A stretch of 64,000 nt of DNA, from NCBI GenBank assembly GCA_963701135.1, contig OY969567.1, forward strand, positions 2,576,537 through 2,640,536, written 5' to 3'. The notes under the pieces are model-generated. The model saw only the letters and a list, made by a program, of their open reading frames with translations, searched no databases and was not told the DNA's origin. Below are positions 2,958 to 62,983 of the stretch, in pieces; the first letter of the stretch is position 1, and every line of letters starts with the position of its first letter. Position numbers and translations under genes: made by a program. The DNA comes from an uncultured Chloroflexia bacterium. GTDB lineage: Bacteria; Chloroflexota; Dehalococcoidia; DSTF01; JACRBR01.

Positions 2958-3060
2958 CCACGGGTAGGGGCGGAGCCATGCCTCCGCCCTGGTCGAGTAG
3001 GGGCGGAGCCATGCCTCCCCCGTGGTCGAGTAGGGGCGGAGCTATGCCTCGTCGCTCGAC
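2958..3060. repeat. Three tandem copies of a 33-bp unit (GTCGAGTAGGGGCGGAGCCATGCCTCCGCCCTG), each with an internal 7-bp hairpin (GGCGGAG/CTCCGCC). A fourth copy lies at 6497-6530.
   Basis: Direct reading of the sequence. The units are contiguous, with no spacers. Confidence 0.8.
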
Positions 3061-6438: not shown

Positions 6439-6567
6439 CGCTGCTGGCGCAGTACAGACAACAGACAACAGACAACAGACAACAGAGCGTCGCCGACGAG
6501 TAGGGGCGGAGCCATGCCTCCGCCCTCGCCGCGAGGCGCTGTCCGCATCCCTTTGCGGGCTGCCCGC

Positions 6568-7538: not shown

Positions 7539-9394
7539 ATGAGCAGGGAATCCAGCTCAGACATTTACCTGCGGTTCGCAGCCGCCAGCTTCGTCGCGAT
7601 CGTCCTGATCGTCGGCGGGTTCGGCTTCATTGGCTCCCAGCTCGTCCGCAGGTCGAACGAGCACTCCGCGGCCGAAACCGCCGCCGCCATCGCGAGCGCC
7701 CCGCTGCTCCCGCTGTTCGAGCCGCTCGCCCCCGGTGAGCCGGTGTCCGCCTCGACCCGGTCGCGGGCGGAGGATGCGCTACGGCCGCTGATCGCGGGCG
7801 ACGTGCGGGCGGTGCGCGTCTGGGGGCAGGCGGCGGAGCCCGTCCTCTCGCTTGGTACGGGAGCGCCGGCGCAGGGACCCTCGCAACCGCCATGGGGCCC
7901 GGCATGGACGCGCTCGACGGCTCCGGACGGCAGCGACATCTTCGTCACGTTTGCCCGCGCCGGCGCGTACACGATCGAAGTCGACCAGTCGTCGGCCGCG
8001 GTCAACCGCGCCATCTCCAAGGCGAACCGGGAAATGATCTCCCTGCTGGCGCTGTTCGCGCTGGCGTGCTTCGTGCTCGTGCAGCTCACGTTCTGGTTCG
8101 GCGTGCGGCGGTTCGCGGCGGGCCACCGGCGGCTGCTCCACCTGTACACACGCGGCGACGAGATCCGCTCGTCGCTGGACCTGCACGAAGTCGTCACGCA
8201 CGTGTCGCGCGACGCCACGCTGCTCGCGCGCGGGAGCCACGGCCTCGTCGCGCTGTACGACGAGAACACCGGCGACATGATGCTCCGCGCGACGTACGAG
8301 CAGGCGACGGGCGCGATCTCGCATCACCAGCGCGCGGTCGAGGAGTGGTTCCTGCGCCGCTGCGTCGCTACGAACACTACGGTGGTGACGTCGCAGCCGG
8401 CCAGCGCGTACCGCCAGTTCTTCCCGGAGGTGGACGGCGCCGGGCAGATGTCCGTCGCTGTGCGTGCCCGTTGCGCTGCGTGAGCGCGTCGTCGCCGTCG
8501 TCGGTGTGATCCGGGCCGGATCGGGACGGCGGGGCGGCTTCACCGACACCGAGGTGCAGGGTGTCGAGGAGCTGGCGGGGCAGGCGCGTCACGGCCGTCG
8601 AGCAGGCGCTGCTCTTCGCGAAGGTGCGGTCGTACGCGGACGAGATCGAGCTGAGCTACGACGCCACGCTGAAGGCGCTCATGGCGGCGCTCGACGCGAA
8701 GGACGAGGTGACTGAGGGCCACTGCGAGCGCGTCGCGCGGATCACGCTGCACCTGGCGCGGCAAATGGGCATACCGGAACCGCAGCTCGTCGACATCGAG
8801 CGCGGCGCGCTGCTGCACGACGTCGGCAAGATCGGCGTGCCGGATGCGGTGCTCAAGAAGCCGAAAGCGCTGAACGACGGCGAGTGGGAGGCGATGCGGA
8901 AGCACCCGCTGCTCGCCGGGCTGATGGTGTCGAAGATCGGCTTCCTGGAAGGCGCGCTGCCCATCCTGCTGTACCACCACGAGCGGTACGACGGCGGCGG
9001 CTATCCGTTCGGCCTCACCGCCGACAAGATCCCGCTCGAAGCGCGCATCTTCTCCATCGTCGATGCCTACGACGCGATGACGTCCGACCGGCCATACCGC
9101 GCGGCGATGAGCCACGACGACGCGATGGCGGAACTCGCGGCGAACAGCGGCACGCAGTTCGACCCGGATGTCGTGGATGCGTTCGAACGGCTGATGGAAG
9201 CGCGCGCCGGATCTGCGCCACGACGCCCCGCACCGCTTCCCCGCCGGCCACGACGACCACGACCAGGATCTGGCGTCTGCGTGCGGAAGACGCGGCGTGA
9301 GGAAGTCGGTCGGTCTTTCAGGATGTCAGTTCGTCAGGGCGGTGGGCGTTCGCTACGAACTGCCGACAGACCGACAGACCGACTGACCGACTGA
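7539..9394 (+). CDS. Membrane-anchored GAF/HD-GYP signalling phosphodiesterase, with a frameshift near nt 8480-8560
   Basis: Two TM segments and a GAF-like region in the 7449-8483 frame. The HD-GYP domain (HCERVARITL...LLHDVGKIGVPD...HHERYDGGGYP) continues in the 8561-9394 frame. Start taken at the internal Met MSRESSSDIY. Confidence 0.65.
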
Positions 9395-9430
9395 CCGACT
9401 GACCGACTGACCGACTGACTGACCGACAGA

Positions 9431-11656
<2,226 letters not shown>

Positions 11657-11664
11657 CTGCCGGC

Positions 11665-14248: not shown

Positions 14249-14299
14249 GACAGCCGCCGCCCAGCCCTACAACCTACAACCCACAACCCACCACCTCAC

Positions 14300-15241
14300 C
14301 TACAACCCACCACCTGTTCTCCGGATCGCGTTCCTCACGAAGAACCAGAGGTTCGCCGGACGCTCCGCCAGCCGCCGCATCAGGTACGGATACCAGTGGC
14401 TGCCGTACGGCACGTAGACGCGCACCCGGTAGCCGCGGTCGCGCAGCCGCCGCTGCAGGTCGCCGCGGATGCCGTACAGCATCTGGAACTCGATGCGGTC
14501 GTTCGCGACGCCGTGCGCGGCCGCGGCCCGGCGCGCCGCACGCACCATCCGCGCGTCGTGTGTCGCGACGGCGAGCCACGCGCCGTCCGTCATACCCGCG
14601 AGATACGCCTCGGCCAGGCGCGCGTACGCCGCATCGACCTCCGCCTTCGACTGGAACGCCACGCTCTCCGGCTCGCGATACGCGCCCTTCACGAGCCGCA
14701 CCGGCACGCCCTCGCGGGCAAGCGCTTCGAGGTCCTCGGCGCTCCGGCGCAGCGCCGCCTGGATCACGACGCCGGCGTTCGCGTGCGACGCGCGCGCTTC
14801 GCGGACGAGGTCGAGCGTCGCCTGCGTGTAGCGCGAGTCCTCCATGTCGATGCGCACGAACGTGCCGGCGGCGTCCGCGCACGCCAGCACCGCATCAAGC
14901 GAGCGGCGTGCCAGGCCCCGATCGAACGCCAGCCCCAGCTCGGTGAGCTTGATCGAAAGATGGCTCCTCAGCCCCTGCGCCTTGACGGCCCCAGCGAACG
15001 ACGTGAACTCCTTGACGGCGCCCGCCACCTCGTCCTCGCTCGTCACCGCTTCGCCGAGAAATGACACCGTCGCCTCGAAGCCGGCGGCGTTGAGCCGGCG
15101 CACCACGTCAAGAACGTCGCGCTGATCGTTGCCGGCGACGAAGCGCCGCGAGAAGCCGCGGAACCCCGGCACGTTCGACGCGATGTGCTCGCCCGTGCGG
15201 CTGCGTGACAGCGCGAAGATCAACTGCCGCAACATGCGCAT
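14300..15241 (-). CDS. Proline dehydrogenase (monofunctional PutA-like)
   Basis: 313 aa. ProDH family motifs: RIDMEDSRYT, VRLVKGAY, IEFQMLYGIRGDLQRRLRDRGYRVRVYVPYG. Confidence 0.75.
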   Translation of the reverse strand: MRMLRQLIFALSRSRTGEHIASNVPGFRGFSRRFVAGNDQRDVLDVVRRLNAAGFEATVSFLGEAVTSEDEVAGAVKEFTSFAGAVKAQGLRSHLSIKLTELGLAFDRGLARRSLDAVLACADAAGTFVRIDMEDSRYTQATLDLVREARASHANAGVVIQAALRRSAEDLEALAREGVPVRLVKGAYREPESVAFQSKAEVDAAYARLAEAYLAGMTDGAWLAVATHDARMVRAARRAAAAHGVANDRIEFQMLYGIRGDLQRRLRDRGYRVRVYVPYGSHWYPYLMRRLAERPANLWFFVRNAIRRTGGGL

Positions 15242-20052: not shown

Positions 20053-20093
20053 CCGGCTGCGCCGGCCAGACGCGGAGAACAGAGAACAGACAA

Positions 20094-20125
20094 CAGAGCC
20101 CTCGATTGAGGGCTCTGTGCGTTTC
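20094..20125 (+). terminator. Rho-independent-type terminator after the oppF-type gene
   Basis: CAGAGCCC-TCGATTGA-GGGCTCTG hairpin followed by TGCGTTTCC. Confidence 0.55.
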
Positions 20126-22493: not shown

Positions 22494-22629
22494 GCCTCCA
22501 ACCTCCAACCTCCAACCTCCAACCTCCAACCTCCAACCTCCAACCTCCAACCTCCAACCTCCAACCTCCAACCTCCAACCTCTAACCTCTAACCTCCAAC
22601 CTCCAACCTCCAACCTCCAACCTCCAACC
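22494..22629. repeat. Heptanucleotide microsatellite (CCTCCAA)n, about 19 units (the other strand reads GGAGGTT)
   Basis: Direct reading. Two units are CCTCTAA variants. Located upstream of rny. Confidence 0.9.
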
Positions 22630-22747
22630 CCGTTTCCTTGACCGCCGGATCGGGCGCTGCGTATGATGGCCTCGTAGCTCGATCTGTCACGAATCGTTAA
22701 CGAGTTACGTTCGAGGGAGACTAAACAACCGGAAAGAGAGGCTACCA

Positions 22748-24280
22748 ATGTTCGCCATCCTGGGCGCCGTGATCGGCGTCGTTGTAGGATTGGCGATCGG
22801 GGCTCTTCTCGGCTACGCCATCAGGCGCAGCAGAACCAGGGACCAGGAGCTACTGGCGGAACAGGCTGCCGCCCGCCTCCTGGCCGATGCACAGGCAAAG
22901 GAAAAGGAGATCCTCCTCGGTGCCAAAGAGGAGGCAATTCAGGTCCGAGCTCAGGCCGAACAAGAGGTCAAGACACGCCGGGACGAAGTCCTCCGGCTTG
23001 AGCAGCGTGTTGCTAACAGGGAAGAGAATCTCGATCGCAAGATAGAGTCGCTCGAACGCAAGGAAGCGGCCTTCACCGAGAAGGAACAGCAGCAGGAAGC
23101 GACCCGCGCAGAGCTCGAAGAACTCCGCAAGGCCAAACTCGCCGAGGTCGAACGCGTCTCCGGCATGACCAGCCAGGAGGCGAAAGACCTGCTGCTCCGC
23201 GAACTGGAGCAGGAGATCCGCGACGAGGCCAACCGCATCGTCCGTACGCTCGAGGCCGAGGCGAAGGAGGAGGCCGACCGCCGCTCGCGGTCGATCCTGG
23301 CCACCACCATGCAGCGGCTCATGGCCGATGTCGTCACCGAGACCACGGTGTCCGTCGTGCCGATCCCCAGCGACGACATGAAGGGCCGCATCATCGGCCG
23401 CGAGGGCCGCAACATCCGCGCGCTGGAGACGGCGACGGGCGTCGACCTGATCATCGATGACACGCCCGACGCCGTCACGCTGTCCGCCTTCGACCCCGTC
23501 CGGCGCGAGATCGCCCGCGTGGCGCTCACGAAGCTCGTGCTCGACGGCCGCATCCACCCGACGCGCATCGAGGAGGTCGTCGAGAAGGCGCGGCACGAGG
23601 TCGACGCCAGCATCAAGACGGCGGGCGAGCAGGCGGCCATCGAGGCCGGCTGTCCGGGCTTGCACCCGGAGATCCTCCGCACCATGGGGAGGCTCAAGTA
23701 CCGCACGTCGTACGGCCAGAACCAGCTCAAGCACGCCGTCGAGTCCGCCTTCATCGCCGCGATGATCGCCGACGAGATCGGCGCCGACGTCAACGTCTGC
23801 CGCCGCGGCGCGCTGCTCCACGACCTCGGCAAGGCCATCGACCACGAGATCGAGGGCACGCACGCGGCGCTCGGCGCCGAGCTGGCGAAGCGCTACAACG
23901 TCACCCCCGCCGTGGTTCACTGCATCGAAGCGCACCACGAGGAGATCGAGGTCGAGACGACCGAGGCCGTGATCGTGCAGATCGCCGACGCGATCAGCGG
24001 CAGCCGGCCCGGCGCCCGCCGCGAGACGCTGGAGCTGTACATCAAGCGCCTGGAAGCGCTCGAAAGCATCGCCAACAGCTTCAAGGGCGTCGAGAAGTCG
24101 TTCGCCATCCAGGCCGGGCGCGAGATCCGCATCATCGTCAAGCCGGACGAGATCGACGACCTGGACTCCATGCGGCTGGCCCGCGACGTCAGCAAGAAGA
24201 TCGAGGAGTCGCTCGAATACCCGGGCCAGATCAAGGTCACCGTCGTCCGCGAGACGCGCGCGAGCGAGTACGCCCGCTAG
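22748..24280 (+). CDS. rny: Ribonuclease Y
   Basis: N-terminal TM helix, coiled coil, KH domain (KGRIIGREGRNIRALE) and HD domain (HAVESAFIAAMIADEIG...LLHDLGKA). 510 aa. Confidence 0.9.
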   Translation: MFAILGAVIGVVVGLAIGALLGYAIRRSRTRDQELLAEQAAARLLADAQAKEKEILLGAKEEAIQVRAQAEQEVKTRRDEVLRLEQRVANREENLDRKIESLERKEAAFTEKEQQQEATRAELEELRKAKLAEVERVSGMTSQEAKDLLLRELEQEIRDEANRIVRTLEAEAKEEADRRSRSILATTMQRLMADVVTETTVSVVPIPSDDMKGRIIGREGRNIRALETATGVDLIIDDTPDAVTLSAFDPVRREIARVALTKLVLDGRIHPTRIEEVVEKARHEVDASIKTAGEQAAIEAGCPGLHPEILRTMGRLKYRTSYGQNQLKHAVESAFIAAMIADEIGADVNVCRRGALLHDLGKAIDHEIEGTHAALGAELAKRYNVTPAVVHCIEAHHEEIEVETTEAVIVQIADAISGSRPGARRETLELYIKRLEALESIANSFKGVEKSFAIQAGREIRIIVKPDEIDDLDSMRLARDVSKKIEESLEYPGQIKVTVVRETRASEYAR

Positions 24281-24462
24281 GTCGTACGTCGCAGGTGGTA
24301 GGTTGCAGAGGGCGCGCGCCGCGAGGTGCGCGCCCTCTCGCGCGTGACAGCAAACGGCAAACAGCAAAGCGGGTTCGGGTTTCACGCCGCCCGCCTCTCT
24401 CGTCGCGCTTCTCGCTTCCCTCGCCGGTCTCGCCTCCCGCCGTCGCCCCCGTATACTGACGC

Positions 24463-26774: not shown

Positions 26775-27150
26775 TACGTAGCCACGTGGCGCGGGCTTTT
26801 CAGCCCGCTCGGCACCACGGCTCGCTGGTGTACTGTTTCGAAATGGCGTTGGTTAACGCGACGCGAAGCGTGGATCACAGCCGCCCCCGGCTGTACGTCC
26901 GGCGATCGACGCGTCGCCGAAGGAGACAGCCGGAGCGCCGCGGCGGTCCTACGTGGCGCGGGCTTTTCAGCCCGCGCGGCACCACGGCTCGCTGGTGTAC
27001 TGTTTCGAAATGGCGTTGGTTAACGCGACGCGAAGCGTGGATCACAGCCGCCCCCGGCTGTACGTCCGGCGATCGACGCGTCGCCGAAGGAGACAGCCGG
27101 AGCGCCGCGGCAGTCCTACGTGGCGCGGGCTTTTCAGCCCGCGCGGCGCT
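26775..27150. repeat. Tandem array (2.2 copies) of a ~170-bp unit belonging to the MITE-like repeat family
   Basis: Units begin CTACGT(A/G)GC(CAC)GTGGCGCGGGCTTTTCAGCCCGC and contain the palindromes GCGCGGGCTTTTCAGCCCGCGC and ACAGCCGCCCCCGGCTGT. The copies at 26775, 26949 and 27117 are nearly identical. Confidence 0.85.
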
Positions 27151-36286: not shown

Positions 36287-37840
36287 CTAGCGCGCCGGGC
36301 TGCCGGCGTAGTGCGCGACCAGCGCTTCGACCAGCCCATCGATCGTGTAGCGGCCGGCGGTCACGCTGACCTCGAGGCCTGCTTCGCGCACGGCGGCGGC
36401 GGTGACGGGGCCGATCGCGGCGATGACGGCGGTGCGCAGCGGGGCGGGGTCGCCGCCGAGCATGGCGATGAGGTTGCGCACGGAGGATGAGCTGGCGAAG
36501 GTGACGGCATCGATCTCGCCCGCGCGCAGCCGCCGCAGCGCTTCGGCGCCGGGCCGCTCGGGCACCGCCGCCCGGTAGAGCGTCAGCTCGCGCACGCTGG
36601 CGCCCATCGCCAGCAGGCCGTCGACCAGCACCTCACGCGCGCCTTCGGCGCGGGGCAGCAGCACGCGCTGGCCGCGCATGACACGCGAGGCGAACGCGTC
36701 CAGCAGCCCCTCGGCGACGAAGCGCTCCGGCACGAGGTCCGCGCGCAGCCCCTCGCGCGCCAGAGCCTCGGCCGTGCCGGGGCCGATGGCGGCGATACGC
36801 GCTCGCGCGAACGCCCGCGCGTCGAGCCCGGCGCCGCGCACGTGGCCGAGGAACAGCTCGACGGCGTTGGCGCTCGTGAAGACGACCCACTGGTAGCCTG
36901 ACGATTTCAGCACCTCGATCGCGTACCCAAGCTCGCGCTCGTCGTGCGAGGGCACGATCTCGATGACCGGCAGCTCGACCGGCTCGGCGCCCTGCGCCGC
37001 GAGGGCGCGCGACAGGTCGCTCGCCTGCCGGCGCGTGCGGGTGACGAGCACGCGCTTGCCGAACAGCGGGCGCGTGTCGAACCAGCGCAGCTCGTCGCGC
37101 AGCCGCGCGACCTCGCCGACGACGGTGACGGCGGGCGGCTCGATGCCGGCCGCGCGCACGGCGCCGGCGATCGTCGCGAGCGTGCCGGTGGCGGTGCGCT
37201 GCCGCGGCAGCGTGCCCCATTCGATCACCGCCGCGGGCGTCGCTGCGTCGCGGCCGTGCGCGATCAGTTGCTCCGCGATCTCGGCGAGCCGCCCCGTGCC
37301 CATGAGGAAGACGAGCGTATCGGCGCCGTTCGCGAGCCGCGCCCAGTCGATGCTCGTCGCGTCCTTCGACGGGTCCTCGTGACCCGTGATCACGGCGAAC
37401 GACGATGCAAGCGAGCGATGGGTCAGCGGGATGCCCGCGTACGCGGGCGCGGCGATCGACGACGTGACGCCGGGCACCACCTCGAACGGCACGCCGGCGG
37501 CGATCAACGCCTCGGCCTCCTCGCCGCCGCGGCCGAAGACGAAGGGGTCGCCGCCCTTGAGGCGCACAACGCGCTTTCCGGCGAGCCCGAGTTCGACGAG
37601 CAGCGCGTTGATCTGGTCCTGCGTCATCGTGTGGCGGTCGGTGGTCTTGCCGACGTAGATCAGCTCGGCGCCGGGGCGCGCGTGCGAGAGCAGCGCCGGG
37701 TTGGCCAGGCGGTCGTAGACCACGACCTCCGCCTCGGCGAGGCGCGCCGCGCCGCCGATGGTCAGCAGATCGGGATCGCCCGGGCCGGCGCCGACGAGCG
37801 AGACGAACCCCTTGCCGCGCGATGCCCCGTCGCTGCTCAT
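36287..37840 (-). CDS. cobA-hemD: Uroporphyrinogen-III C-methyltransferase / uroporphyrinogen-III synthase fusion
   Basis: N-terminal SUMT ([15 protein letters not shown]...[12 protein letters not shown]). C-terminal HemD-like half. Confidence 0.85.
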
Positions 37841-38746
37841 TCGATGAACCTCGCCGCTCCCTGCGCCAGCACCGCCTCGGCCGCGCGCACGCCCAGATCG
37901 CCCGGCGTGGCGGATGGGCCGCGCACCTCGGCGCGGATGATGCGGTCGCCGGCGGCGATCATCACGCGCAGCATCAGCTCACCGGCGGCAACGGTAGCGT
38001 ACGCGCCGACGGGGAGCCGGCAGCCGCCGCCAAGCCGTTGCAGGTACGCCCGCTCTGCCTCGACCGCCGCGTGCGTCTGCGCGTCATCGATCGCGCTGAC
38101 GAAGGCCAGCGCCTCGTGGTCGTCGATGCGCGCTTCTATGCCGAGCGCGGCCTGGCCGACGGCCGGGAGCATCTCGTCGACCGAGAACACGTGCGCGGCC
38201 TTGCCTTCGAGCCCCAGGCGCGCCAGGCCGGCCATCGCGAGCACCGCGGCGTCGTACTCGCCGGACTCCACCTTCCTGATGCGGGTGTCGACGTTGCCGC
38301 GGATCTCGATCGTCTCGACGTCAGGCCGGAGCGACTTGATCTGCACGGCGCGGCGGCCGCTGCCGGTGCCGATGCGCGCGCCCGGCGGCAGGTCCGCACA
38401 GCGACGCCCCGCCACGCGACACGAGGGCGTCGCGCGGGTCGGCGCGTGGCGGCACGGCGGCGAGCGCGAGGCCGGCCGCGAGCGCGGCGGGCAGGTCCTT
38501 GAGGCTGTGGACGGCGATGTCGGCGTCGCGCGCGATGAGCGCGTCCTCGATCGCCTTCGTGAAGACGCCGAGGCCGCCGATCTCGGCGAGCGGCGCGGTG
38601 GAGCGGTCGCCCTCGGTGTGGATCTCGCGCACCTCGAGGCGCGCGCCGGGGTGGGCCGCGCGCAGGGCCTCCGACACCAGTTCGACCTGGCGGAGCGAGA
38701 GCTTGCTCCCGCGCGCGCCGATAACGAACGTCCGCTCCATGCCCAC
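37837..38746 (-). CDS. hemC: Hydroxymethylbilane synthase (porphobilinogen deaminase), with a frameshift near nt 38390
   Basis: N-terminus ERTFVIGARGSKLSLRQVELV...AVHSLKDLP in one frame. The C-terminal part (RIGTGSGRRAVQIKSLRPDVE...RGNVDTR) is in another. Confidence 0.75.
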
Positions 38747-38843
38747 ATTATCCGTGAAAGCATCGGTGGTCGATATGTGCGGGCCGGTATATGGGAGAGG
38801 AAGTTGGAGGTTGGAGAGCAGAGAGCAGAGACGGGCGGACGGC

Positions 38844-38907
38844 GTAGGGACGAAGCTTTAGCTCCGTCCGAGCGGTGTTGGGGACGGAGCTAAAGCTTCG
38901 TCCCTAC
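38844..38907. other. Perfect 26-bp inverted repeat with a 12-nt loop, overlapping the hemA stop codon
   Basis: GTAGGGACGAAGCTTTAGCTCCGTCC - GAGCGGTGTTGG - GGACGGAGCTAAAGCTTCGTCCCTAC. Confidence 0.9.
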
Positions 38908-40164
38908 GTGTTCGTCTCGGGATCGTCCACGCCGAAGAGGGCGCGCGCGGCTGCGACGTAGCGGTCGCCCTGGCCGGGTTGCTTGAGGCGGCTGATGGGG
39001 GCGTGGAGGAGCTTCTTGACGAGCGCCGACGTCATGGCTTCGACGCGCTTGCGGTCGGCGGCGCTGAGGTTCGTCTTCGCGAGCGTGCGCTCGAGCTCGG
39101 CCAGGCGCAGCGTCTCGGCGTGCGAGCGCAGCGCGGCGACCGTGGGGACGACTTCGAGCGATCGGAGCCAGTCGCCGAACCTGGCGATCTCCTCGTCGAC
39201 GATCGCCTCCGCCTGCGCCGAGCTCCTTGCGCCGCAGGTGCATGCTGTGGCGCGCGACGGCCTGCAGGTCGTCGATGTCGTGCAAGTGCACCCCGGACAG
39301 CTCGCGCACCGCCGGGTCGACGTCGCGCGGGACGGCGATGTCGATCAGCAGCAGCGGCCGGTTCGGACGGGCGGCCATCGCGGTCTCAAGCATCGGGCGG
39401 TCGATCAGGAAGTGCGGCGCGGCGGTCGACGTGATGACGATGTCCGCCTCGGCGAGGGCGTCCGGCAGGCGCTCGAACGGCAGTGTGCTGCCGCCGAGCT
39501 CGGCCGCAAGCTCGGCCGAGCGCGCGGCGTTGCGGCTCGTCACCAGCATGCGCGAGACGCCGCTCGAAGCGAGCGTGCGCGCCGTGAGCTTGCCGGCCTC
39601 GCCGGCGCTGACGACGAGCGCCGTCTTGCCGGACAGATCGCCGAGCGCTGAACGGGCGAGCGACACCGCCGTGGAGCTGACGGACATCGTGCCGCGGCCG
39701 ATGTTGGTCTGCGCGCGCGCCTTGCGTCCGACGCGGATCGCGGTGTGGAACAGGCGCGAGAGCACGGGCGTGTGGGTGCCGGCGGCCGTGGCGGCGGTGA
39801 ACGCCGCGCGCACCTGGCCCAGGACCTCCGACTCGCCGATCACCATCGATTCGATGCCGGCGGCGACGCGGAAGAGGTGGCGCGCGGCCTCCTTGCCGGT
39901 GACGGCGAAGAACGGCGCGCCCTCGAACGCGACCTCGCCCTTGATCTCGCTCAGCAGCGCCACGATCGGGCGGGGGTCGCCGATGCCGCGCGCGCTCGCG
40001 ACGTAGATCTCGGTGCGGTTGCAGGTGGAGAGCACGGCCGCGCCCGCGTAGCGCTCGCCGAGCTTCGCCAGGAGCGGCGGCAGCTCATCGGCCGAGAACG
40101 CGAAGTGCTCGCGCACGGCCACGGGCGCCGTCTTGTGCGAAATGCCGATGAGCGAAATCTGCAC
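38904..40164 (-). CDS. hemA: Glutamyl-tRNA reductase, with a frameshift near nt 39230
   Basis: N-terminal ~300 aa (LSTCNRTEIY...NAARSAELA) in the long ORF. The true C-terminus (...TSALVKKLLHAPISRLKQPGQGDRYVAAARALFGVDDPETNT*) is in the adjacent frame. Confidence 0.75.
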
Positions 40165-40871: not shown

Positions 40872-41570
40872 CTAAGACTCAGCCTCGTACGCGCCGGCGA
40901 TGCCGAGCAGCACTTCGTCGGCGAGCGCCATGATCTGCTCGCAGACCTCGACCGACTCGCTGTGCGGCGTACCCGTCTTCGCGAGCGCCTGCTTGGCCGA
41001 CTGGTCGAGGCTGCGGCGGAAGAACGTGAACGCGTGCATGGCCTGGAACAGCGACATGCCGGAGGCGGCCAGCTCCGACCCGTACTGCGCGCCGGTCGCG
41101 CGCGCTTCCTCGAGCAGCGAGGTCTTGCGGCCGCGCTTGCCGACGTAGTCGGCGACGAGCGCCATCAGCCGCCGGCCGAGCGGCCGCAGCTTCTCGCGCT
41201 GCTCCTCGCCGACGTTCGCGTACCAGTCCTCGGGACGGTGGTGGAGCTGGCGGCGAATGCGGCGCGTGGCGAGGTCTCCGACCTCGCTCATGTGGTTCTT
41301 CGAGCGGCCGTTGACGATCGCGCGCACGTCGCCATCGGCGAAGCGGCGGTGGCCGCCGGGCGTGCGGAAGGTGCGCACCTGGCCGGCGTCGGCCCAGCGG
41401 CGCAGCGTTGACTCATCGACGTTCAGCAGGCGGCATGCCTGGCCGAGCGTGAGCCAGCGCTCCGATTCAGACGGTGGCGGCGCGCTGGCGGACGTGCGCG
41501 CGGCCGCGGGAACCCTGCTCAAACCTGTGTAATCCTCGTTCCGGTCCAGCCGTCCGTGAGATTCTAGCAT
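40872..41570 (-). CDS. MerR-family transcriptional regulator with an uncharacterized C-terminal domain
   Basis: HTH WLTLGQACRLLNVDESTLRRWADAGQV. Start taken at MLESHG. The longer ORF reading into the heptamer repeat (GGWRLEV...) is rejected. Confidence 0.6.
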   Translation of the reverse strand: MLESHGRLDRNEDYTGLSRVPAAARTSASAPPPSESERWLTLGQACRLLNVDESTLRRWADAGQVRTFRTPGGHRRFADGDVRAIVNGRSKNHMSEVGDLATRRIRRQLHHRPEDWYANVGEEQREKLRPLGRRLMALVADYVGKRGRKTSLLEEARATGAQYGSELAASGMSLFQAMHAFTFFRRSLDQSAKQALAKTGTPHSESVEVCEQIMALADEVLLGIAGAYEAES

Positions 41571-41699
41571 GCGGGAAATCGCGGGCAATCGAGGAAGGGC
41601 GCGGCGCCGCGGCCAACCTGCGTAAATCTGGCGGGCGCGGGGGAGAGCAGAGACAGCAAACAGCAAACAGCAAAGGGGCCGGGCTCTCGCTTCCCGCCT

Positions 41700-41902
41700 G
41701 CGGCCTCCAACCTCCAACCTCCAACCTCCAACCTCCAACCTCCAACCTCCAACCTCCAACCTCCAACGTCCAACCGCCGGCCTCCAACCGCCGGCCTCCA
41801 ACCTCCAACCTCCAACGTCCAACCTCCAACCGCCGGCCTCCAACCTCCAACTTCCAACCGCCGGCCTCCAGCGTCCAGCCTGCGGCCTCTAGCCTCCAAC
41901 CT
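41700..41902. repeat. Heptanucleotide microsatellite (CCTCCAA)n with CCGGCCTCCAA variants, ~25 units. It reads (GGAGGTT)n on the strand of the downstream MerR-family gene.
   Basis: Direct reading. Lies 130 nt upstream of the MerR-family start. Confidence 0.9.
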
Positions 41903-41925
41903 CGGGGCGCCGGTACGCTGCATGC

Positions 41926-42330
41926 ATGAACAACGAACCGCTCGCGCGGAAGGCGCAGGCCGACCTGATCATCGACCGGGCAGCGCAGCAGATGCGGCTG
42001 CTGCTGCAGGAGGCGGCGAAGGAGCTGCGGCCGTTCCCGCCGTTCCCGGGCGCGTTCTTCACGAACGCGGTGGAGGTGAACCTCGACGGCGTGGAGCGCG
42101 CGGACATCGGCTGCATCATCGTCGGCGAGGACGGCGAGCTGTACGAGCTGGAGATGAAGATCGACTTCGGCGAGGAGTTCGGCGACGTCGTCGACCCCGT
42201 GCAGGCGCGCGAAGAGACGCTGAAGAAGCTCGAAGAGCTGCACCCGCGCGACTACATCGTGCTGGCGTACAACGCGCTGACGCAGCTCACGGAGCTCCTG
42301 CTGGAGCAGCACGCCGACGCATCGGCCTGA
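41926..42330 (+). CDS. Hypothetical protein (134 aa)
   Basis: Clean ORF with balanced composition. No family recognised. Confidence 0.45.
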   Translation: MNNEPLARKAQADLIIDRAAQQMRLLLQEAAKELRPFPPFPGAFFTNAVEVNLDGVERADIGCIIVGEDGELYELEMKIDFGEEFGDVVDPVQAREETLKKLEELHPRDYIVLAYNALTQLTELLLEQHADASA

Positions 42331-42334
42331 GACC

Positions 42335-43276
42335 ATGCCGCCGCCCCGCACGTTCATTATCGCCTTCGTCGCGTTCGCGGTCTTCGCGTTGCTCGCGGCG
42401 TGCGTGGCGAGCGCGCAGCCGGGGCCGGACGCGGTGGGCGAGCCGGCCGTCACGCTGAAGCCGGCTGTCGCGACCGTCGGCGACCGGCTGACGCTGACGA
42501 TCGCCATCGACCACGAGGACGGCGTGACGCTGACGCCGCCGGGCTTCGGCGGCGGCTTCGGCGGCCTGGAGGTCGTCGAGATCGCGCCGCCGGCCGACGA
42601 GGAGCGCGGCGCGGGCAGGCGCCGCACGACGTTCACGTACACGCTGACGGCGTTCACGCCGGGATCGTTCACGGTGCCGCCGCGGCAGGTGACATTCGCC
42701 GGGCCCGGCGCGGCGAGCGGCGCGGTCGAGACGGCGGCGCGGACGGTGACGATCAACTCCGTGCTCGCGCCGGGCGATGCGTCGCTGCGGCCGTTGAAAC
42801 CGCAGCTTGAGATCGATAGCGCCGCGCCGGCGGCGGCAGTGCCGGTCCTCGTCGTGGCGGCCTTCGCCGTGCTCACCGCCGCCGGCTACCTGCTGCACGT
42901 GCAGGCCGTCCGCATCCCGCCGCCGGCGCCCGTGGCCGCGCCGGCGCCGCCACCGCCGCCGCAGGAACGAGCGCTGGCGGCGCTCGACGCCACGGCGCCG
43001 CTCGCGGACGCCGACGTCCGCGCGTACTACGCGCGCATCGCCGCGACGTTGCGGGCGTACCTGAGCGAGCGCTACGCGTTTCCGGCGTACGCCATGACGC
43101 GGACGGAGATGGAGCGCGGCATGGAGGGGGCGGGCATCGAGCGCTGGCCGGCGCGGCTGACGGCGAACCTCCTCGAGCAGTGCGACGCCGCGCAGTTCGC
43201 GGGGTTCGTGCCGGCGGCGGAGCGCCGTGCGGCCGACCTGGCCGCCGCGCGCGAGATCGTGGCGCTGACGGCGTAG
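42335..43276 (+). CDS. Secreted/membrane-anchored hypothetical protein with a DUF4381 (BatD-associated)-like C-terminal domain
   Basis: Signal peptide, a Gly-rich segment, a central TM helix and a Pro-rich linker. The C-terminal region (AYYARIAATLRAYLSERY...LLEQCDAAQFAGFVP) is reminiscent of DUF4381. Confidence 0.45.
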   Translation: MPPPRTFIIAFVAFAVFALLAACVASAQPGPDAVGEPAVTLKPAVATVGDRLTLTIAIDHEDGVTLTPPGFGGGFGGLEVVEIAPPADEERGAGRRRTTFTYTLTAFTPGSFTVPPRQVTFAGPGAASGAVETAARTVTINSVLAPGDASLRPLKPQLEIDSAAPAAAVPVLVVAAFAVLTAAGYLLHVQAVRIPPPAPVAAPAPPPPPQERALAALDATAPLADADVRAYYARIAATLRAYLSERYAFPAYAMTRTEMERGMEGAGIERWPARLTANLLEQCDAAQFAGFVPAAERRAADLAAAREIVALTA

Positions 43277-43359: not shown

Positions 43360-45104
<1,745 letters not shown>

Positions 45105-45611: not shown

Positions 45612-45859
45612 CGGTCAGATGATACGGGGTGCGAGGTGTTGCCGCAAGCGGCGGGGGGGGACAACAGACAACAGACAACAGACAGCAGACAACAGCAAAC
45701 AGCAAACAGCAAACAGCAAACAGCAAAGGGCAAAGGGCAGGCGTCGGCGCTCCTCCCGCTTCCCGCCTCCGGCGTCTCGCTTCCACTTGCCCGCTTCGCC
45801 GCTTCGGGTATTGCTGTTGTTGGTTGACGCGCTACACGGATCCGTGTACGGTGCCTCGC

Positions 45860-46236: not shown

Positions 46237-47561
46237 CCCGGCTCCAACCTCCGCCGCCTCACCGAGGCGCAGCTCATCGCGCTCTGGCGCGGGCGGCGCT
46301 TCCCGGACGGGCGCGCTCGTGACGCGCGCGGGCGTGCCGGTGCGACGTGATCTTCCAGGGGCGCGCCGGGGCGCGGGCCGGGGCCGGACTTTCGCGGCGC
46401 GGTGATCGCCGGGCCGTCCGGCGTGCCGCTGCGCGGCGACGTCGAGCTGCACGTGCGCGTCGTCGTACGTTCCGCGCGCACGGGCACGACGCCGACCGCG
46501 CGTACGCGCAACGTCGATCCTGCACGTCGTCTTCGACGACGACACCGGCGAGGACACGCCGCTGCCGGGCGGCGGCACGCGCGCCGGTCGTCGCGCTCGC
46601 GCCATGGGTGGCGCGGCGCGCGGACGAGCTGCAGCGCTGGCTGGAGCGGCCGCTGCTCTGGCGCGAGCCGTGCCACGACGCCGTGATGCGCATGGGCGCG
46701 GACGGCGCGGGCGCGGCGCTGGACGCGGAGGGCGACCGGCGCTTCGACGCGAAGGTCGCGCGGGCGCGCGAGACCGTGCGCGCGGCCGGCATCGAGCAGG
46801 CGCTGTACGAGGGGCTGCTCGAAGCGCTCGGCTACGGCGGCAACGCGCCGCCGATGCTGGCGCTGGCGCGGCTGCTGCCGTGGCGGCGGCTGGCGCGAAG
46901 GCATCGCGCCGGAGGACCGCGCCATGGAGCATGGAGGCGCTGCTGCTCGGCGGCGGCGGGACTGCTGCCGTCGCAGCGCGGGCACCGCGGGCCCGTCGAA
47001 GCGCACGTCGACGCGCTGGAGCGCGCGCTTCGCGCGGGCGCGGCTGCCGTCGCTGCAGCCGGGCACGTGGAAGCTCTGGGGCGTGCGGCCGGAGAACGCG
47101 CCGGCGCGCCGCGTCGCCGCGGCGGCAGCGCTGCTGCGCGCGGCTGGCGACGCCCGCACGCGCTGCTCGGCATCGCTCGACGCGAGCACGGTCAACGAGG
47201 CGATCGCGCCGCTGCTCATCAGCGCGTCAGGCTACTGGCTGACGCCACCACGACGTCTGCGCGGCGCCCTGCCGGCTGCCGCCGGCGCTCGTCGGGCGCT
47301 CGCGCGCGCTGGAGATCATCGTCAACGTCGTGCTGCCCGTGGCCTGCGCGTCAGGCGACGCCGCGCTGGCCAGCGAAGGCGCGCGCGCTGTTCGCGCGGC
47401 TGCCGCGGCCGGCGGTCTACGGCGCGACGCGGTTCATCGAGGCGGCGCTGGCGTCGGAGGGGTTCCGCGTGCCGGTCAACGCGCGCCGCGCGCAGGGGCT
47501 GCTGGCGCTGCAGCGCAACTGGTGCACGCAGAACGGCTGCGGGAGGTGCGGGCTGAGTTAG
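46237..47561 (+). pseudogene. DUF2851-family protein gene broken by numerous frameshifts
   Basis: Fragments across three frames match the DUF2851 pattern: QLIALWRGRRF, GPDFRGAVIAG...GDVELHV, HGHDADRAYA, ILHVVFDDDTGEDTPLPGG, and the C-terminal LALQRNWCTQNGCGRCGL (CxxxxCxxC). Confidence 0.5.
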
Positions 47562-47673
47562 GTGATAGGTTCTAGGTGATAGGTTTTAGGGGGAGAGAGA
47601 ACAGACAACAGACAACAGACAACAGACAACAGAGGACCGACAGAGCACGCTAGCCCCTAAAACCTAGAACCTA

Positions 47674-55023: not shown

Positions 55024-55113
55024 GGACGGCGTTACCTCATTCGCGACATCGTGCGGGGACGGTTTCGTCATGATACCGAGGGGGGAGGCGGGCCGGTAGC
55101 TGGAGGTTGGAGG

Positions 55114-56387
55114 GGTTCTACACTCGTCAGTGTGGATTGAGAGCAGGAGGCTGAACAGAAAGGCACCTGGTGTTCCTGTAGCCTTGGGCTGATCAAAGAC
55201 GCCAGCAACAGGAAGGAGGCCAGGTGCTGTCTCAGGCTATCACGGTGCAGTTACGACTCCCAGGACTCGCGGTGTGGGGCGTGGAAGAGCGCGATGACGC
55301 GATCGAGGTCGTGGCCCAGTACGCGGCTGCGGAGGCGCCGTGTCCGCGGTGCGACCAGCCGGCGTGGCAGGTGCATCAGGTGCACCGCCAGTACAAGCGG
55401 GACGCGCAGCTCTGGGGAAAGCAGGTCTGGATTCTGCTCTGGAAGCGGCGCTTTCGCTGTCGCACCTGCGGGTGCATCTTCACCGAACAGGACGCGGCGT
55501 GCGGGCGCCGACGGCGTACGACCTGCCGGCTGCGTGCGACCGTCGCACGCGACGCGGAGGAAACGCCGGTCCGGACCGTGGCACGCTGGCACGGGGTGAG
55601 TGAGGGGCTCGTACAGCGTAGCTGGCTGGAGGCGCATCGCTCCCCTGCGACACCGCCCAAACCGCACGTGTTGATCGGTCTCGACGGCTTCTGTGTGCGT
55701 CGGCCGGGCGCGATGTGGACGGGCCTCTGGGACCTCCAGACGCGGCATCCGATTGCCGTGGTGGCCGGAGAACGGAAGCTCGACGTGGAGAGGATGCTGG
55801 AGCGGCACGCCGCGCGAGACGCGGTGCGGGCCGTCAGCATCGACCTCTCGGAGGCGTACCGGCAGGCGGTGCAGCTGGTCCTGCCGGACGCGGCGATCGT
55901 CGCCGACAAGTTTCACGTCATCGCGCTTGCCGGCCGCGCCCTCCAGGAGGTGCACGGAGAGACGCGCCGGCGCGGCAACGTCGCCTGGCTGCTCCAGCGC
56001 GGCGTCGAGCGGCTGCACGCGGCGGACAAGCTGCGGCTGGCTGCGGCGCTGCGGCAGGACCGCGCGCTCACGACCGCCTGGACGCTCAAGGAAGAGCTGC
56101 GCGCCGTCTACCGCGCGCCGACGCAGGCCGCGGCGGAGCGGGCGCTGTCCGCGTGGATCCACGACGCAGAAGCAAGTGGCCTACGGCCATTCGTGCGCAC
56201 CGCGCGCACGCTGCGCTCGTGGCGCGCCGAGGTCCTGAACTACTGGCGGTATCCGATCACGAATGCCGTGGTCGAGGGCAAGCACAACCGCGTGAAAGTG
56301 CTGAAACGGAGGGCGTACGGCTACCGGAACAACCAGACCTTTCAGCTCAGGATCCTCAACCTAATCCACACTGATTGACGGAGAACC
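55114..56387 (+). mobile_element. ISL3-family insertion sequence (1274 bp) with imperfect ~28-bp terminal inverted repeats and an 8-bp target-site duplication GTTGGAGG
   Basis: IRL GGTTCTACACTCGTCAGTGTGGATTGAG. IRR (reverse complement) GGTTCTCCGTCAATCAGTGTGGATTAGG. Identical GTTGGAGG at 55106-55113 and 56388-56395. Confidence 0.8.
55224..56378 (+). CDS. ISL3-family transposase
   Basis: N-terminal zinc-finger CPRCDQP...CRTCGC and a DDE_Tnp_ISL3-like core (VSIDLSEAYRQAV...VADKFHVIALAG...KHNRVKVLKRRAYGYRNNQTFQLRIL). Confidence 0.8.
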   Translation: MLSQAITVQLRLPGLAVWGVEERDDAIEVVAQYAAAEAPCPRCDQPAWQVHQVHRQYKRDAQLWGKQVWILLWKRRFRCRTCGCIFTEQDAACGRRRRTTCRLRATVARDAEETPVRTVARWHGVSEGLVQRSWLEAHRSPATPPKPHVLIGLDGFCVRRPGAMWTGLWDLQTRHPIAVVAGERKLDVERMLERHAARDAVRAVSIDLSEAYRQAVQLVLPDAAIVADKFHVIALAGRALQEVHGETRRRGNVAWLLQRGVERLHAADKLRLAAALRQDRALTTAWTLKEELRAVYRAPTQAAAERALSAWIHDAEASGLRPFVRTARTLRSWRAEVLNYWRYPITNAVVEGKHNRVKVLKRRAYGYRNNQTFQLRILNLIHTD

Positions 56388-56481
56388 GTTGGAGGTTGGA
56401 GGTTGGAGGTTGGACCAAGGTGGCCGTCGCGAGGGGCCATGGCGCGCCATGCCCCTACGAACTACGAACTACGAACTGCGC

Positions 56482-57621: not shown

Positions 57622-57825
57622 GGCAAGGAGAGGATAGCAGTTCGTCGGTCGGTCAGTCGGGTCAGTGCGTCAGTCGATCAGTGCGTCAGTCAGTCAGCTA
57701 CCAGCTAACCGCCAACGTGCTGCGGTGCCTGACAGACTGATGACTGAGAGACTGACAGACTGTGCGAATTGACCCCCTTCCGGGGCGGCCATACACTCGG
57801 ATCGCACGCGCCCGCGGCCACGACG

Positions 57826-58641: not shown

Positions 58642-59087
58642 CGGGCGCTGCGCGCCCGCAGAACCAAGAACCGAGAACCAAGAACCGAGACCCGAGAACC
58701 AAGAACCGAGAACCGAGACGCTGGAAGCCGGAGCGGGCTCGGCGGGTCGCCGATGGGTGCGCCGCCGCTGCGCGCGGGCACGAGTGTCCGGAACCGTGCG
58801 GCGGATCGCGGCAGAGGCCACGCCGGGCCAGCACGCGGGAAGGGCGGAGCTGAAGCTCCTTCGCTGCGTTCTTCGGCCGGGCGCTCGGTGGTCCGGCAGG
58901 GGCGCCGCAAGCTGCGCCCCTGCCGGGTCGAGGCCGCCCAACTCCCCCTGTTCGTCCTTTTATGTCAAGTTATCGCCTATCAAGAGGCGCATGGAGGACC
59001 GTCCGGGAAGCCGGGACGTAGGTTATTTTGCGAGATGGTGACAGCAGGGGGTTGCATTATGTGTATCGATTCGTTAGCATCCGCTGG

Positions 59088-59116
59088 TTGACATCCCAAG
59101 GGCCTATTTGTATACT
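59088..59116 (+). promoter_or_regulatory. Sigma-70-type promoter upstream of rpoB (TTGACA-17 nt-TATACT)
   Basis: Exact -35 hexamer TTGACA at 59088-59093 and near-consensus -10 TATACT at 59111-59116, in a locally lower-GC leader about 120 nt upstream of the rpoB ATG. Confidence 0.6.
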
Positions 59117-59234
59117 CACCCAAGGCTAGACAGAACCCCCTTGCCTTTTGGATCCCCACGCATGTCCCTCTACGGGACTATCTCTGTCATCAGGAGATCA
59201 CGGTTCGTAACGCATTGTTAGGAGCGCGCCCGGC

Positions 59235-62983
<3,749 letters not shown>

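Follow-up and report, generated by a model that had tools for sequence, protein, structure and literature searches.

A long heptanucleotide repeat array between two divergent promoters in an uncultured high-G+C Chloroflexota bacterium

The stretch of DNA considered here (hereafter the window), 64,000 nucleotides (nt) of contig OY969567.1 from an uncultured soil member of the Chloroflexota, carries an intergenic array of tandem CCTCCAA heptamers about 200 bp long. On one side of the array, in the order of the minus strand, lie the genes for a MerR/HTH_17-family regulator, a sirC-like NAD_binding_7 protein, hemA and hemC (Pfam); on the other side, and divergently oriented, lies a conserved gene of unassigned family, p134. 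An earlier reading of the letters alone (the original prediction) had named the MerR, sirC-like, RNase Y and ISL3 transposase genes of the window, and Pfam agrees with it on all four. On the minus strand the unit reads GGAGGTT or TTGGAGG, and the same prediction had taken the repeat for a series of Shine-Dalgarno (SD)-like motifs that would act on ribosomes ahead of the MerR gene. The array forms part of an apparently genome-wide set of period-7 arrays in a Chloroflexota genome of 69% G+C, whose relatives are metagenome-assembled genomes (MAGs) of the class Dehalococcoidia.

The array and the promoters on either side

Tandem Repeats Finder (TRF) describes the array as 28.6 copies of a period-7 unit with 80% matches and no indels and, when it is cut into heptamers, a single 7-nt register is kept from end to end, the units standing head to tail without spacers. 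Beside the exact units there are CCGCCGG (four times), CGTCCAA (twice) and single copies of CTTCCAA, CCTCCAG, CGTCCAG, CCTGCGG, CCTCTAG and CCTCGGG; the tandem GGAGGTT repeat first described is thus real, but its count of about 25 resolves into 17 exact and some 11 variant units. Read from the left, MerR-side end, a perfect run of nine exact units is followed by 1, 3, 1, 2 and 1 among the variants, and the p134-side end consists of degenerate units. The two-unit 14-mer CCTCCAACCTCCAA, with at most one mismatch, has 36 matches in the window, where shuffled sequence would give 0.01, and heptamer arrays in general are longer and more frequent here than chance would give.

The orthologous spacers of about 15 relatives were read and aligned for promoter elements. 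On the MerR side, the same TAGAATC stands in each of 10 orthologous loci, usually with TG before it and a TTGnnn box 16 nt upstream, and a promoter scan of positions 41400-42000 returned exactly one site, the MerR promoter, against 0.0 in shuffles; the candidate of a promoter within the array was rejected, as the scan found none there. The array had been said to end 130 nt before the MerR start. However, the ATG at 41570 is the 'ATG' within the conserved extended -10 (aTGcTAGAAT), and the likely start is the TTG at 41522, 181 nt from the array: a conserved GATTnCACAGnTTTG about 40 nt downstream of ATG 41570 and the -10 ends in this in-frame TTG, and the resulting protein fits the 214-215 aa of independent gene calls in two relatives (L178 and L180). 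On the p134 side, a TAnnnT motif is invariant in 11 orthologous loci and, since it sits 6-7 nt before the start, a leaderless p134 mRNA is predicted. The array is far closer to the divergent p134 than to the MerR gene, with 22 nt to the p134 ATG and 115 nt to the MerR -35. It lies upstream of both conserved core promoters and is therefore probably in neither the MerR nor the p134 mRNA, as judged from these sequence elements, which leaves a role as SD or anti-SD element unsupported. By the same kind of prediction the mRNA of rny, the RNase Y gene, also lacks the repeat (Table 1).

Among relatives (L001, L009 and L178 at the merR promoter; L014 and L017), a palindrome CTTGTGACGnTTGACACAAG lies over the merR -35, and an inverted repeat AATCTATGCA-N22-TGCATAGATT occurs between the merR -10 and the start. 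Both are candidate operators, and the CTTGTGACGnTTGACACAAG palindrome has been lost in the window. Among the neighbouring genes, groEL (43360-45074) is split into two overlapping open reading frames (ORFs), and the hemA C-terminus (38890-40164) and hemC (37837-38763) are out of frame; these breaks are probably indel errors of long-read assembly or, failing that, mark pseudogenes.

Table 1. Repeat arrays, promoters, genes and the insertion sequence (IS) discussed in the text, in window coordinates.
Feature	Position	Strand	Remarks
Second long array, (CCTCCAA)19.3	22495..22629		98% matches; orientation as at 41704-41903; ends 8 nt before rny -35
Predicted rny promoter	22638..22667	+	TTGACC, 18-nt spacer, TATGAT; rny ATG at 22748
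(GTTGGAG), about 2 units, then (GAGAGCA)2.6	38797..38831		between hemA and hemC
MerR/HTH_17-family regulator gene	40872..41522	-	likely start TTG 41522; 216 aa
Predicted MerR promoter	41561..41588	-	TTGCCC, 16-nt spacer, TG-extended TAGAAT (TGcTAGAAT)
Other heptamer array, (ACAGCAA)3.1	41653..41674		same intergenic region as the CCTCCAA array
C-rich degenerate heptamers CTCTCG CTTCCCG CCTGCGG	41684..41703		in register with the array
Heptanucleotide array (CCTCCAA)n	41704..41903		about 28.6 units, 17 exact
p134 -10, TACGCT	41914..41919	+	six nt before ATG 41926; last array units over the -35 zone
p134, conserved 134-aa gene	41926..42330	+	no Pfam match; nearest gene to the array
Left remnant of split (TTGGAGG)n array	55100..55113		last 8 nt GTTGGAGG (55106-55113), target-site duplication
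ISL3-family IS	55114..56387	+	transposase 55182-56375; terminal inverted repeats 55114-55163, 56338-56387
Right part of split array, (GTTGGAG)3.9	56388..56414		starts with the duplicated GTTGGAGG (56388-56395)

Heptamer arrays in the window and in metagenomes

The claim that this is a non-coding tandem heptamer repeat which recurs elsewhere in the window has been borne out. TRF finds 29 period-7 arrays in the window, 1184 bp in total and with about 20 different units, and there are 14 exact period-7 tracts with three or more copies, compared with 0 to 4 for each other period from 4 to 12; in 100 first-order Markov simulations no period-7 tract of at least three copies appeared. Over the 64 kb, period 7 is dominant and the arrays are non-coding: crude gene calls take up 65% of the window but include only 62 of the 1184 bp, and arrays occur between genes of every relative orientation, divergent, co-directional or convergent (for example at 6454-6486, 11586-11655, 14266-14315, 45660-45805, 47559-47633 and 58660-58718). 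The pooled arrays have a G+C content of 54%, against 69% for the window. Many units share an AGGT/ACCT core (TAGGTGA, TAGGTTC, TAGGTCG, CCTATCA, CCTACAA, CCTACCA and CCTCCAA) or an ACAG core (ACAGCAA, ACAGACA, GAGAACA and GAGAGCA); AGAACCG, TCCCGCT, AACTGTG and a few octamers also occur. A 'three-letter alphabet' was considered as a common property and rejected: 19 of the 29 arrays lack one base on a strand, but so do about 49% of random heptamers.

Further copies of the CCTCCAA repeat had been listed along with the long array. The one upstream of rny (22748-24280; Pfam) is real, with 19.3 copies, but the rny coding strand reads CCTCCAA rather than the GGAGGTT first given. Those at 38795-38810 and 55095-55113 are present, though with only about two units each. 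The two tracts that flank the IS are also present but are in fact one array split by an ISL3 insertion: the element has its own imperfect terminal inverted repeats of 50 nt, and its 8-bp target duplication GTTGGAGG falls inside a pre-existing array of about six units, for which reasons the repeats were rejected as IS ends. The heptamers are the target of ISL3, not part of it.

Some arrays are combined into larger structures. A composite module of (ACAGCAA)3-5, AAGGG and the C-rich CTCYCGCTTCCCGCCTSCGGC was noted at 41653-41704, 45691-45773 and 24347-24445, and at all three loci a plus-strand gene starts about 20 to 90 nt past the last array or C-rich stretch. At 11490-11660 there are inverted heptamer arrays, (TAGGTGA)n and (CCTATCA)n around an ACAG-rich loop, and the palindrome at 11500-11655 folds into an extended hairpin (as DNA, -37 kcal/mol and z = -6.9). 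Immediately downstream comes a gene recognised by eye as hisH-like, whose -10, TATACT, lies at the end of the right arm of the hairpin. On the minus strand, ACAG-core arrays form T-rich, terminator-like tails straight after G+C-rich hairpins at 20075-20118 and 6454-6494, and some of them may serve as terminator U-tracts of convergent genes; as a general explanation, intrinsic-terminator U-tails were rejected, fitting two or three cases (20093-20118, 6478-6494 and possibly 16161) and not the CCTCCAA arrays. Octamer arrays of ACTGACCG, GTCAGTCG and CTGACAGA occur at 9359-9440, 57644-57697 and 57729-57762, the last ending 6 nt before a predicted -35 TTGACC at 57769.

Outside the window, a metagenome scan for four exact CCTCCAA units matched at least 120 contigs of 34% to 71% G+C. 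Among the contigs listed, further period-7 arrays are frequent and often one-mismatch neighbours of CCTCCAA, and there are almost no arrays of period 5, 6, 8 or 9; arrays standing beside one-mismatch variant arrays indicate diversification in place. Orientation was counted in the high-G+C contigs among the matches listed, with a crude G+C-skew gene caller. Next to gene starts (n = 53) the coding strand carries CCTCC in 33 cases and GGAGG in 20 (p = 0.10), so that the expected bias towards the SD-like strand on the coding side of starts is not seen, and the coding strands of rny and p134 both read CCTCCAA. Next to gene ends (n = 31) the split is 17 versus 14. A Rho-loading (rut) site, which the C-rich, G-free strand would suit, was likewise rejected for lack of an orientation bias, both in these gene-end counts and in the window, where by hand tally the C-rich strand lies in the transcript of the upstream gene in about 7 of 12 AGGT/CCT-family arrays.

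The window holds three further features of other kinds. A REP-like 33-nt palindromic element (GTAGGGGCGGAGCCATGCCTCCSCCC...) has 2.6 tandem copies at 2964-3050 and a single copy at 6499-6530, a 167-nt tandem duplication at 26784-27147 comprises 2.2 copies that are 98% identical, and a near-consensus promoter TTGACA-17-TATACT is followed by a comparatively A+T-rich leader of about 120 nt before the ATG at 59235 (59088-59235), with no Rfam family.

The orthologous site in relatives

The MerR protein has 56 related loci, all in uncultured Chloroflexota and mostly labelled Dehalococcoidia, with a best identity of 81%. The divergent start-to-start distance, 404 nt in the window, is roughly 150-440 nt in the other relatives (figures read by hand), none of which has the long array; in the window the 200-nt array makes up about half of this spacer. 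The closest relative, L177, is 94% identical in the p134 amino acid sequence and 92% at the nucleotide level, and carries before its -10 only about five degenerate units (CGTCCAG CCTCTGG CCTCGAC CCTCAGG CCGCCGG), which align unit for unit with the degenerate, p134-proximal end of the window array. L009 has about six CATCCAA units beside the same promoter, plus an unrelated (CCGACGA)13. No heptamer array was found at the orthologous site of L178, L180 or L181: the spacer of L178 has two GGTTCTn units, and in L180 and L181 it contains other repeats of about 100 nt. L179, a short-read metagenome contig, begins 1 nt before the p134 ATG, exactly where an array would lie, and such an edge is what an assembler break on a repeat would give.

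Related units at this site thus number from 0 to about 6 in the relatives, and both copy number and sequence vary, in agreement with the earlier proposal that copy number is labile in evolution. Exact heptamer tracts have a density of 2.19 per 10 kb in the window and 0.30 in 24 close relatives, a difference of about sevenfold. The absence of the long array from the relatives points to a recent, lineage-specific expansion.

Positions 1-1667 of L177 correspond to window positions 41869-42765 plus 58995-59581, so that p134 is joined there to the reverse complement of 58995-59581 and not to merR. The breakpoint coincides with the degenerate end of the array, and the junction reflects an inversion of 17 kb or else a chimeric contig. 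A distant Chloroflexia MAG, L044, has 11 hexamer (CCGACG)n tracts at 286-660 and 15018-15109, and the repeat period dominant in its lineage differs from 7.

A known class of repeat and the readings of the array

The array belongs to a known class, the intergenic heptanucleotide simple sequence repeats (SSRs) of bacteria, or arrays like the short tandemly repeated repetitive (STRR) sequences. The cyanobacterial STRR heptamers, reportedly described by Mazel et al. in 1990 and referred to in PMC4692102, resemble it as intergenic tandem heptamers with several families per genome and no established function, and an ACAG/ACTG core is found in some units of both (CAACAGT in STRR3; ACAGCAA and AACTGTG here). 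It is not a cyanobacterial STRR in the strict sense: its units differ from those of STRR1-3, and phylum and G+C content differ too, the relatives being Chloroflexota/Dehalococcoidia MAGs. In many bacteria the long SSRs are most often heptanucleotides, for which an origin by polymerase slippage has been put forward (Mrazek, 2007, as presented in PMC4679880 and PMC4692102); in the same phylum, Chloroflexus aurantiacus carries (GATAGRA)n arrays (PMC6749651). With these the present arrays share head-to-tail 7-nt units that are strongly over-represented relative to other periods and intergenic, a few unit families at many loci of a genome, and a length and sequence that vary between close relatives. 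Unlike them, they have units of their own (CCTCCAA, ACAGCAA and others) in a high-G+C, Dehalococcoidia-related host, and the array considered here is unusually long, with about 28 units, and stands between divergent promoters.

Three better characterised heptamer systems are more distant. The GGGNATC repeats of Xanthomonas and Nostoc (PMC4692102) are also G-rich, intergenic, variable between relatives and without association with a class of genes. Unlike them, the present unit has GG tracts only, which allow two tetrads at most, and no runs of three or more G; there is no preference for four units, with arrays of 28.6, 19.3, about 6 (before the IS insertion) and 2 units; and the array lies between divergent genes, where GGGNATC repeats are under-represented. 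In Haemophilus influenzae hmw1A/hmw2A, (ATCTTTC)n lies between P2 and P1 and is transcribed in the 5' untranslated region (UTR) (PMC8262952, PMC12721329). The 7-bp units, tens of copies, position upstream of a gene and, presumably, copy-number change by slippage are common to both; hmw encodes a surface adhesin of a host-adapted pathogen, whereas the array here lies upstream of housekeeping core promoters. The TAACTGA repeats of marine Beggiatoaceae, 2-6 copies of one dominant unit a few nt from start codons, with a proposed role in translation (PMC4679880), are likewise heptamer direct repeats in intergenic DNA by gene starts and likewise occur in unrelated phyla; here, in contrast, units are many, arrays are long, and the array is upstream of a predicted leaderless promoter.

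We consider it likely that the tract is a non-coding heptanucleotide microsatellite that arose by slipped-strand expansion in a promoter-upstream spacer predicted to be untranscribed, with an architectural effect at most. The process would have started from a few old, decayed CCTCnnn units beside the p134 promoter and, in this lineage, would have proceeded by slipped-strand mispairing in 7-bp steps, leaving the youngest, perfect units at the distal, MerR-side end; variant units copied during the expansion would account for the recurring CCGCCGG. Once grown, the array would add about 200 bp between the two divergent promoters and replace the DNA just upstream of the -35, as also at rny, with a repeat of lower G+C. 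Each change of length would shift the upstream DNA and rotate it by 240 degrees per unit, the phase returning every three units (21 bp).

Several points weigh against this interpretation. The untranscribed state is judged from promoter elements that are predicted and conserved. The two long CCTCCAA arrays are co-oriented and end at most 10 nt from, or on, the -35 of the next gene and, together with the octamer array (57762/57769), such ends at -35 boxes hint that arrays have a role upstream of promoters. Short-read MAGs may miss some of the arrays, and the L179 contig ends where the array would be. Within the 64 kb, moreover, units recur at separate loci (CCTCCAA at 4, ACAGCAA at 4 and ACAGACA at 3), six intergenic regions combine the AGGT-core and ACAG-core families in one fixed order, and a 21-nt junction outside the exact-repeat run is common to 41684-41704 and 45753-45773; slippage acting separately at each locus does not account for these three observations.

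Among the alternatives, the one that survives best, though we regard it as unlikely, is that the array is a tunable promoter element, a contingency or 'rheostat' locus in which unit number would, by analogy, grade the transcription of p134 and/or MerR-sirC-hemA-hemC. At the orthologous site relatives vary widely in unit number, the array abuts the p134 -35 zone as its sister nearly abuts the rny -35, and in H. influenzae more heptamer units go with less hmwA transcript (PMC8262952). The hmw repeats, however, lie between P2 and P1 in a long 5' UTR, whereas by the predicted promoters the present array is outside the -35/-10 spacer as well as any 5' UTR, a position that matches neither the hmw nor the -35/-10 spacer type of phase-variable SSR; the phase variation by promoter spacing suggested at first is for this reason unlikely. 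Furthermore, the flanking genes are of housekeeping type (heme synthesis, RNase Y) and not surface or contingency genes, and arrays also occur at convergent gene ends without a promoter. A graded effect of the length of the upstream spacer is possible.

A somewhat smaller chance is given to a dispersed cis-element or mobile module, in which composites of AGGT-core, ACAG-core and CCT-core arrays, in this order, would have been copied between intergenic regions or would be bound by a dedicated protein, a nucleoid or promoter-upstream factor. It would account for the same units standing at three to four loci each, for the fixed order of the families, with the full palindrome at 11500-11655 (z = -6.9), and for the 21-mer CTCYCGCTTCCCGCCTSCGGC at 41684-41704, whose recurrence at 45753-45773 compares with 0.07 matches expected by chance and which is part of a module (ACAGCAA)3-AAGGG...-CTCYCGCTTCCCGCCTSCGGC common to 41653-41704 and 45691-45773. 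The same units are also found at non-orthologous sites in other species (CCAACCT in L013, AGGTTCT in L017), and the number of metagenome contigs with at least four CCTCCAA units points the same way. Against it, neighbouring arrays differ by single mismatches, as growth in place predicts, the shared junction itself consists of degenerate heptamers, and for the arrays no terminal inverted repeats, target duplications, associated gene or candidate binding protein were found. Because of the recurrence, the fixed order and palindrome, the shared module and the array ends at -35, dispersal of a composite module or a binding factor keeps a place beside slippage. It is improbable that the arrays in general are sequence-specific cis-elements, propagated or bound by a factor and placed by -35 boxes and terminator hairpins. 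G-quadruplexes (G4s) bind heme and, in the extreme version of this idea, stacked two-tetrad G4s of (GGAGGTT)n in the supercoiled spacer before the regulator of the heme/siroheme operon could, if true, serve as a heme-responsive DNA switch.

A related proposal, to which we give no more credit than to the preceding one, is that (GGAGGTT)n adopts non-B DNA: stacked two-tetrad G4s with weak i-motifs opposite, which might fold when negative supercoiling between the divergent promoters unwinds the DNA and might modulate both of them. Two-tetrad G4s are marginally stable. The G strand has 33 overlapping four-tract motifs of GG with loops of 1-3 nt, and each G4, its loops being 1, 2 and 1 nt, is given an indicative value of about -9.7 kcal/mol by a simple energy model; the G4 of the original prediction is possible in single-stranded DNA, with two tetrads only, since the array has no GGG tract and no canonical G3+ motif, and the central loop differs from that of the thrombin aptamer, 1 nt here against 3 nt there. 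The GGGNATC heptamers of Xanthomonas and Nostoc do form G4 in vitro (PMC4692102), but in Xanthomonas they show a clear mode of 4 units, against 28 and 19 here, and are under-represented between divergent genes, where the present array lies. Most other arrays in the window lack G tracts, and G4 formation therefore cannot explain the class.

A role at the RNA level is very improbable. CCUCC is the core of the 16S rRNA anti-SD, and a unit that contains GGAGG, with CCUCC as its complement, could in principle act as an SD mimic or anti-SD sponge, as (GGAGGUU)n in the MerR leader or (CCUCCAA)n in the p134 or rny leader. Yet, judged by the conserved -35/-10 elements, transcription of both flanking genes begins downstream of the array, the predicted start of rny is also downstream of its array, p134 is predicted to be leaderless, the gene-start counts lean to CCTCC among the metagenome contigs listed (33 against 20), and relatives have the same genes without the array. 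The headline claim of SD-like motifs acting on ribosomes before MerR is not supported, given this position upstream of the promoters and the presence of about 20 other, non-SD-like units in the window; the position of the promoters, the leaderless p134, the counts of orientation and the diversity of units led to the rejection of an SD or anti-SD role, and the likeness to GGAGG looks coincidental, a property of the unit sequence. An RNA-structure reading was rejected as well: folding of the G strand gives weak G-U pairing (z = -2.7, not informative), and Rfam has no match anywhere in the window. Finally, a translated 7-residue peptide repeat, WRLEVGG fused in frame to MerR from TTG 41843 or LQPPTSN on the plus strand, can be dismissed, for although several frames have stop-free ORFs across the array, a stop-less 7-nt unit is open in every frame by construction, the ORF would pass through the conserved promoter, and the MerR homologues of 214-215 aa have no repeat at the N-terminus.

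The favoured microsatellite reading calls for caution in inferring function from look-alike motifs such as GGAGG within a repeat unit. The locus offers a comparative case in which the same conserved divergent promoter pair is found with 0, about 5, about 6 or about 28 units, and arrays coincide with one short-read contig end (L179) and one junction that is either rearranged or chimeric (L177). Intergenic heptamer repeats, on record in bacteria since 1990, are the most frequent of the long SSRs; the window adds a dense and diverse example of them in an uncultured high-G+C member of the Chloroflexota.

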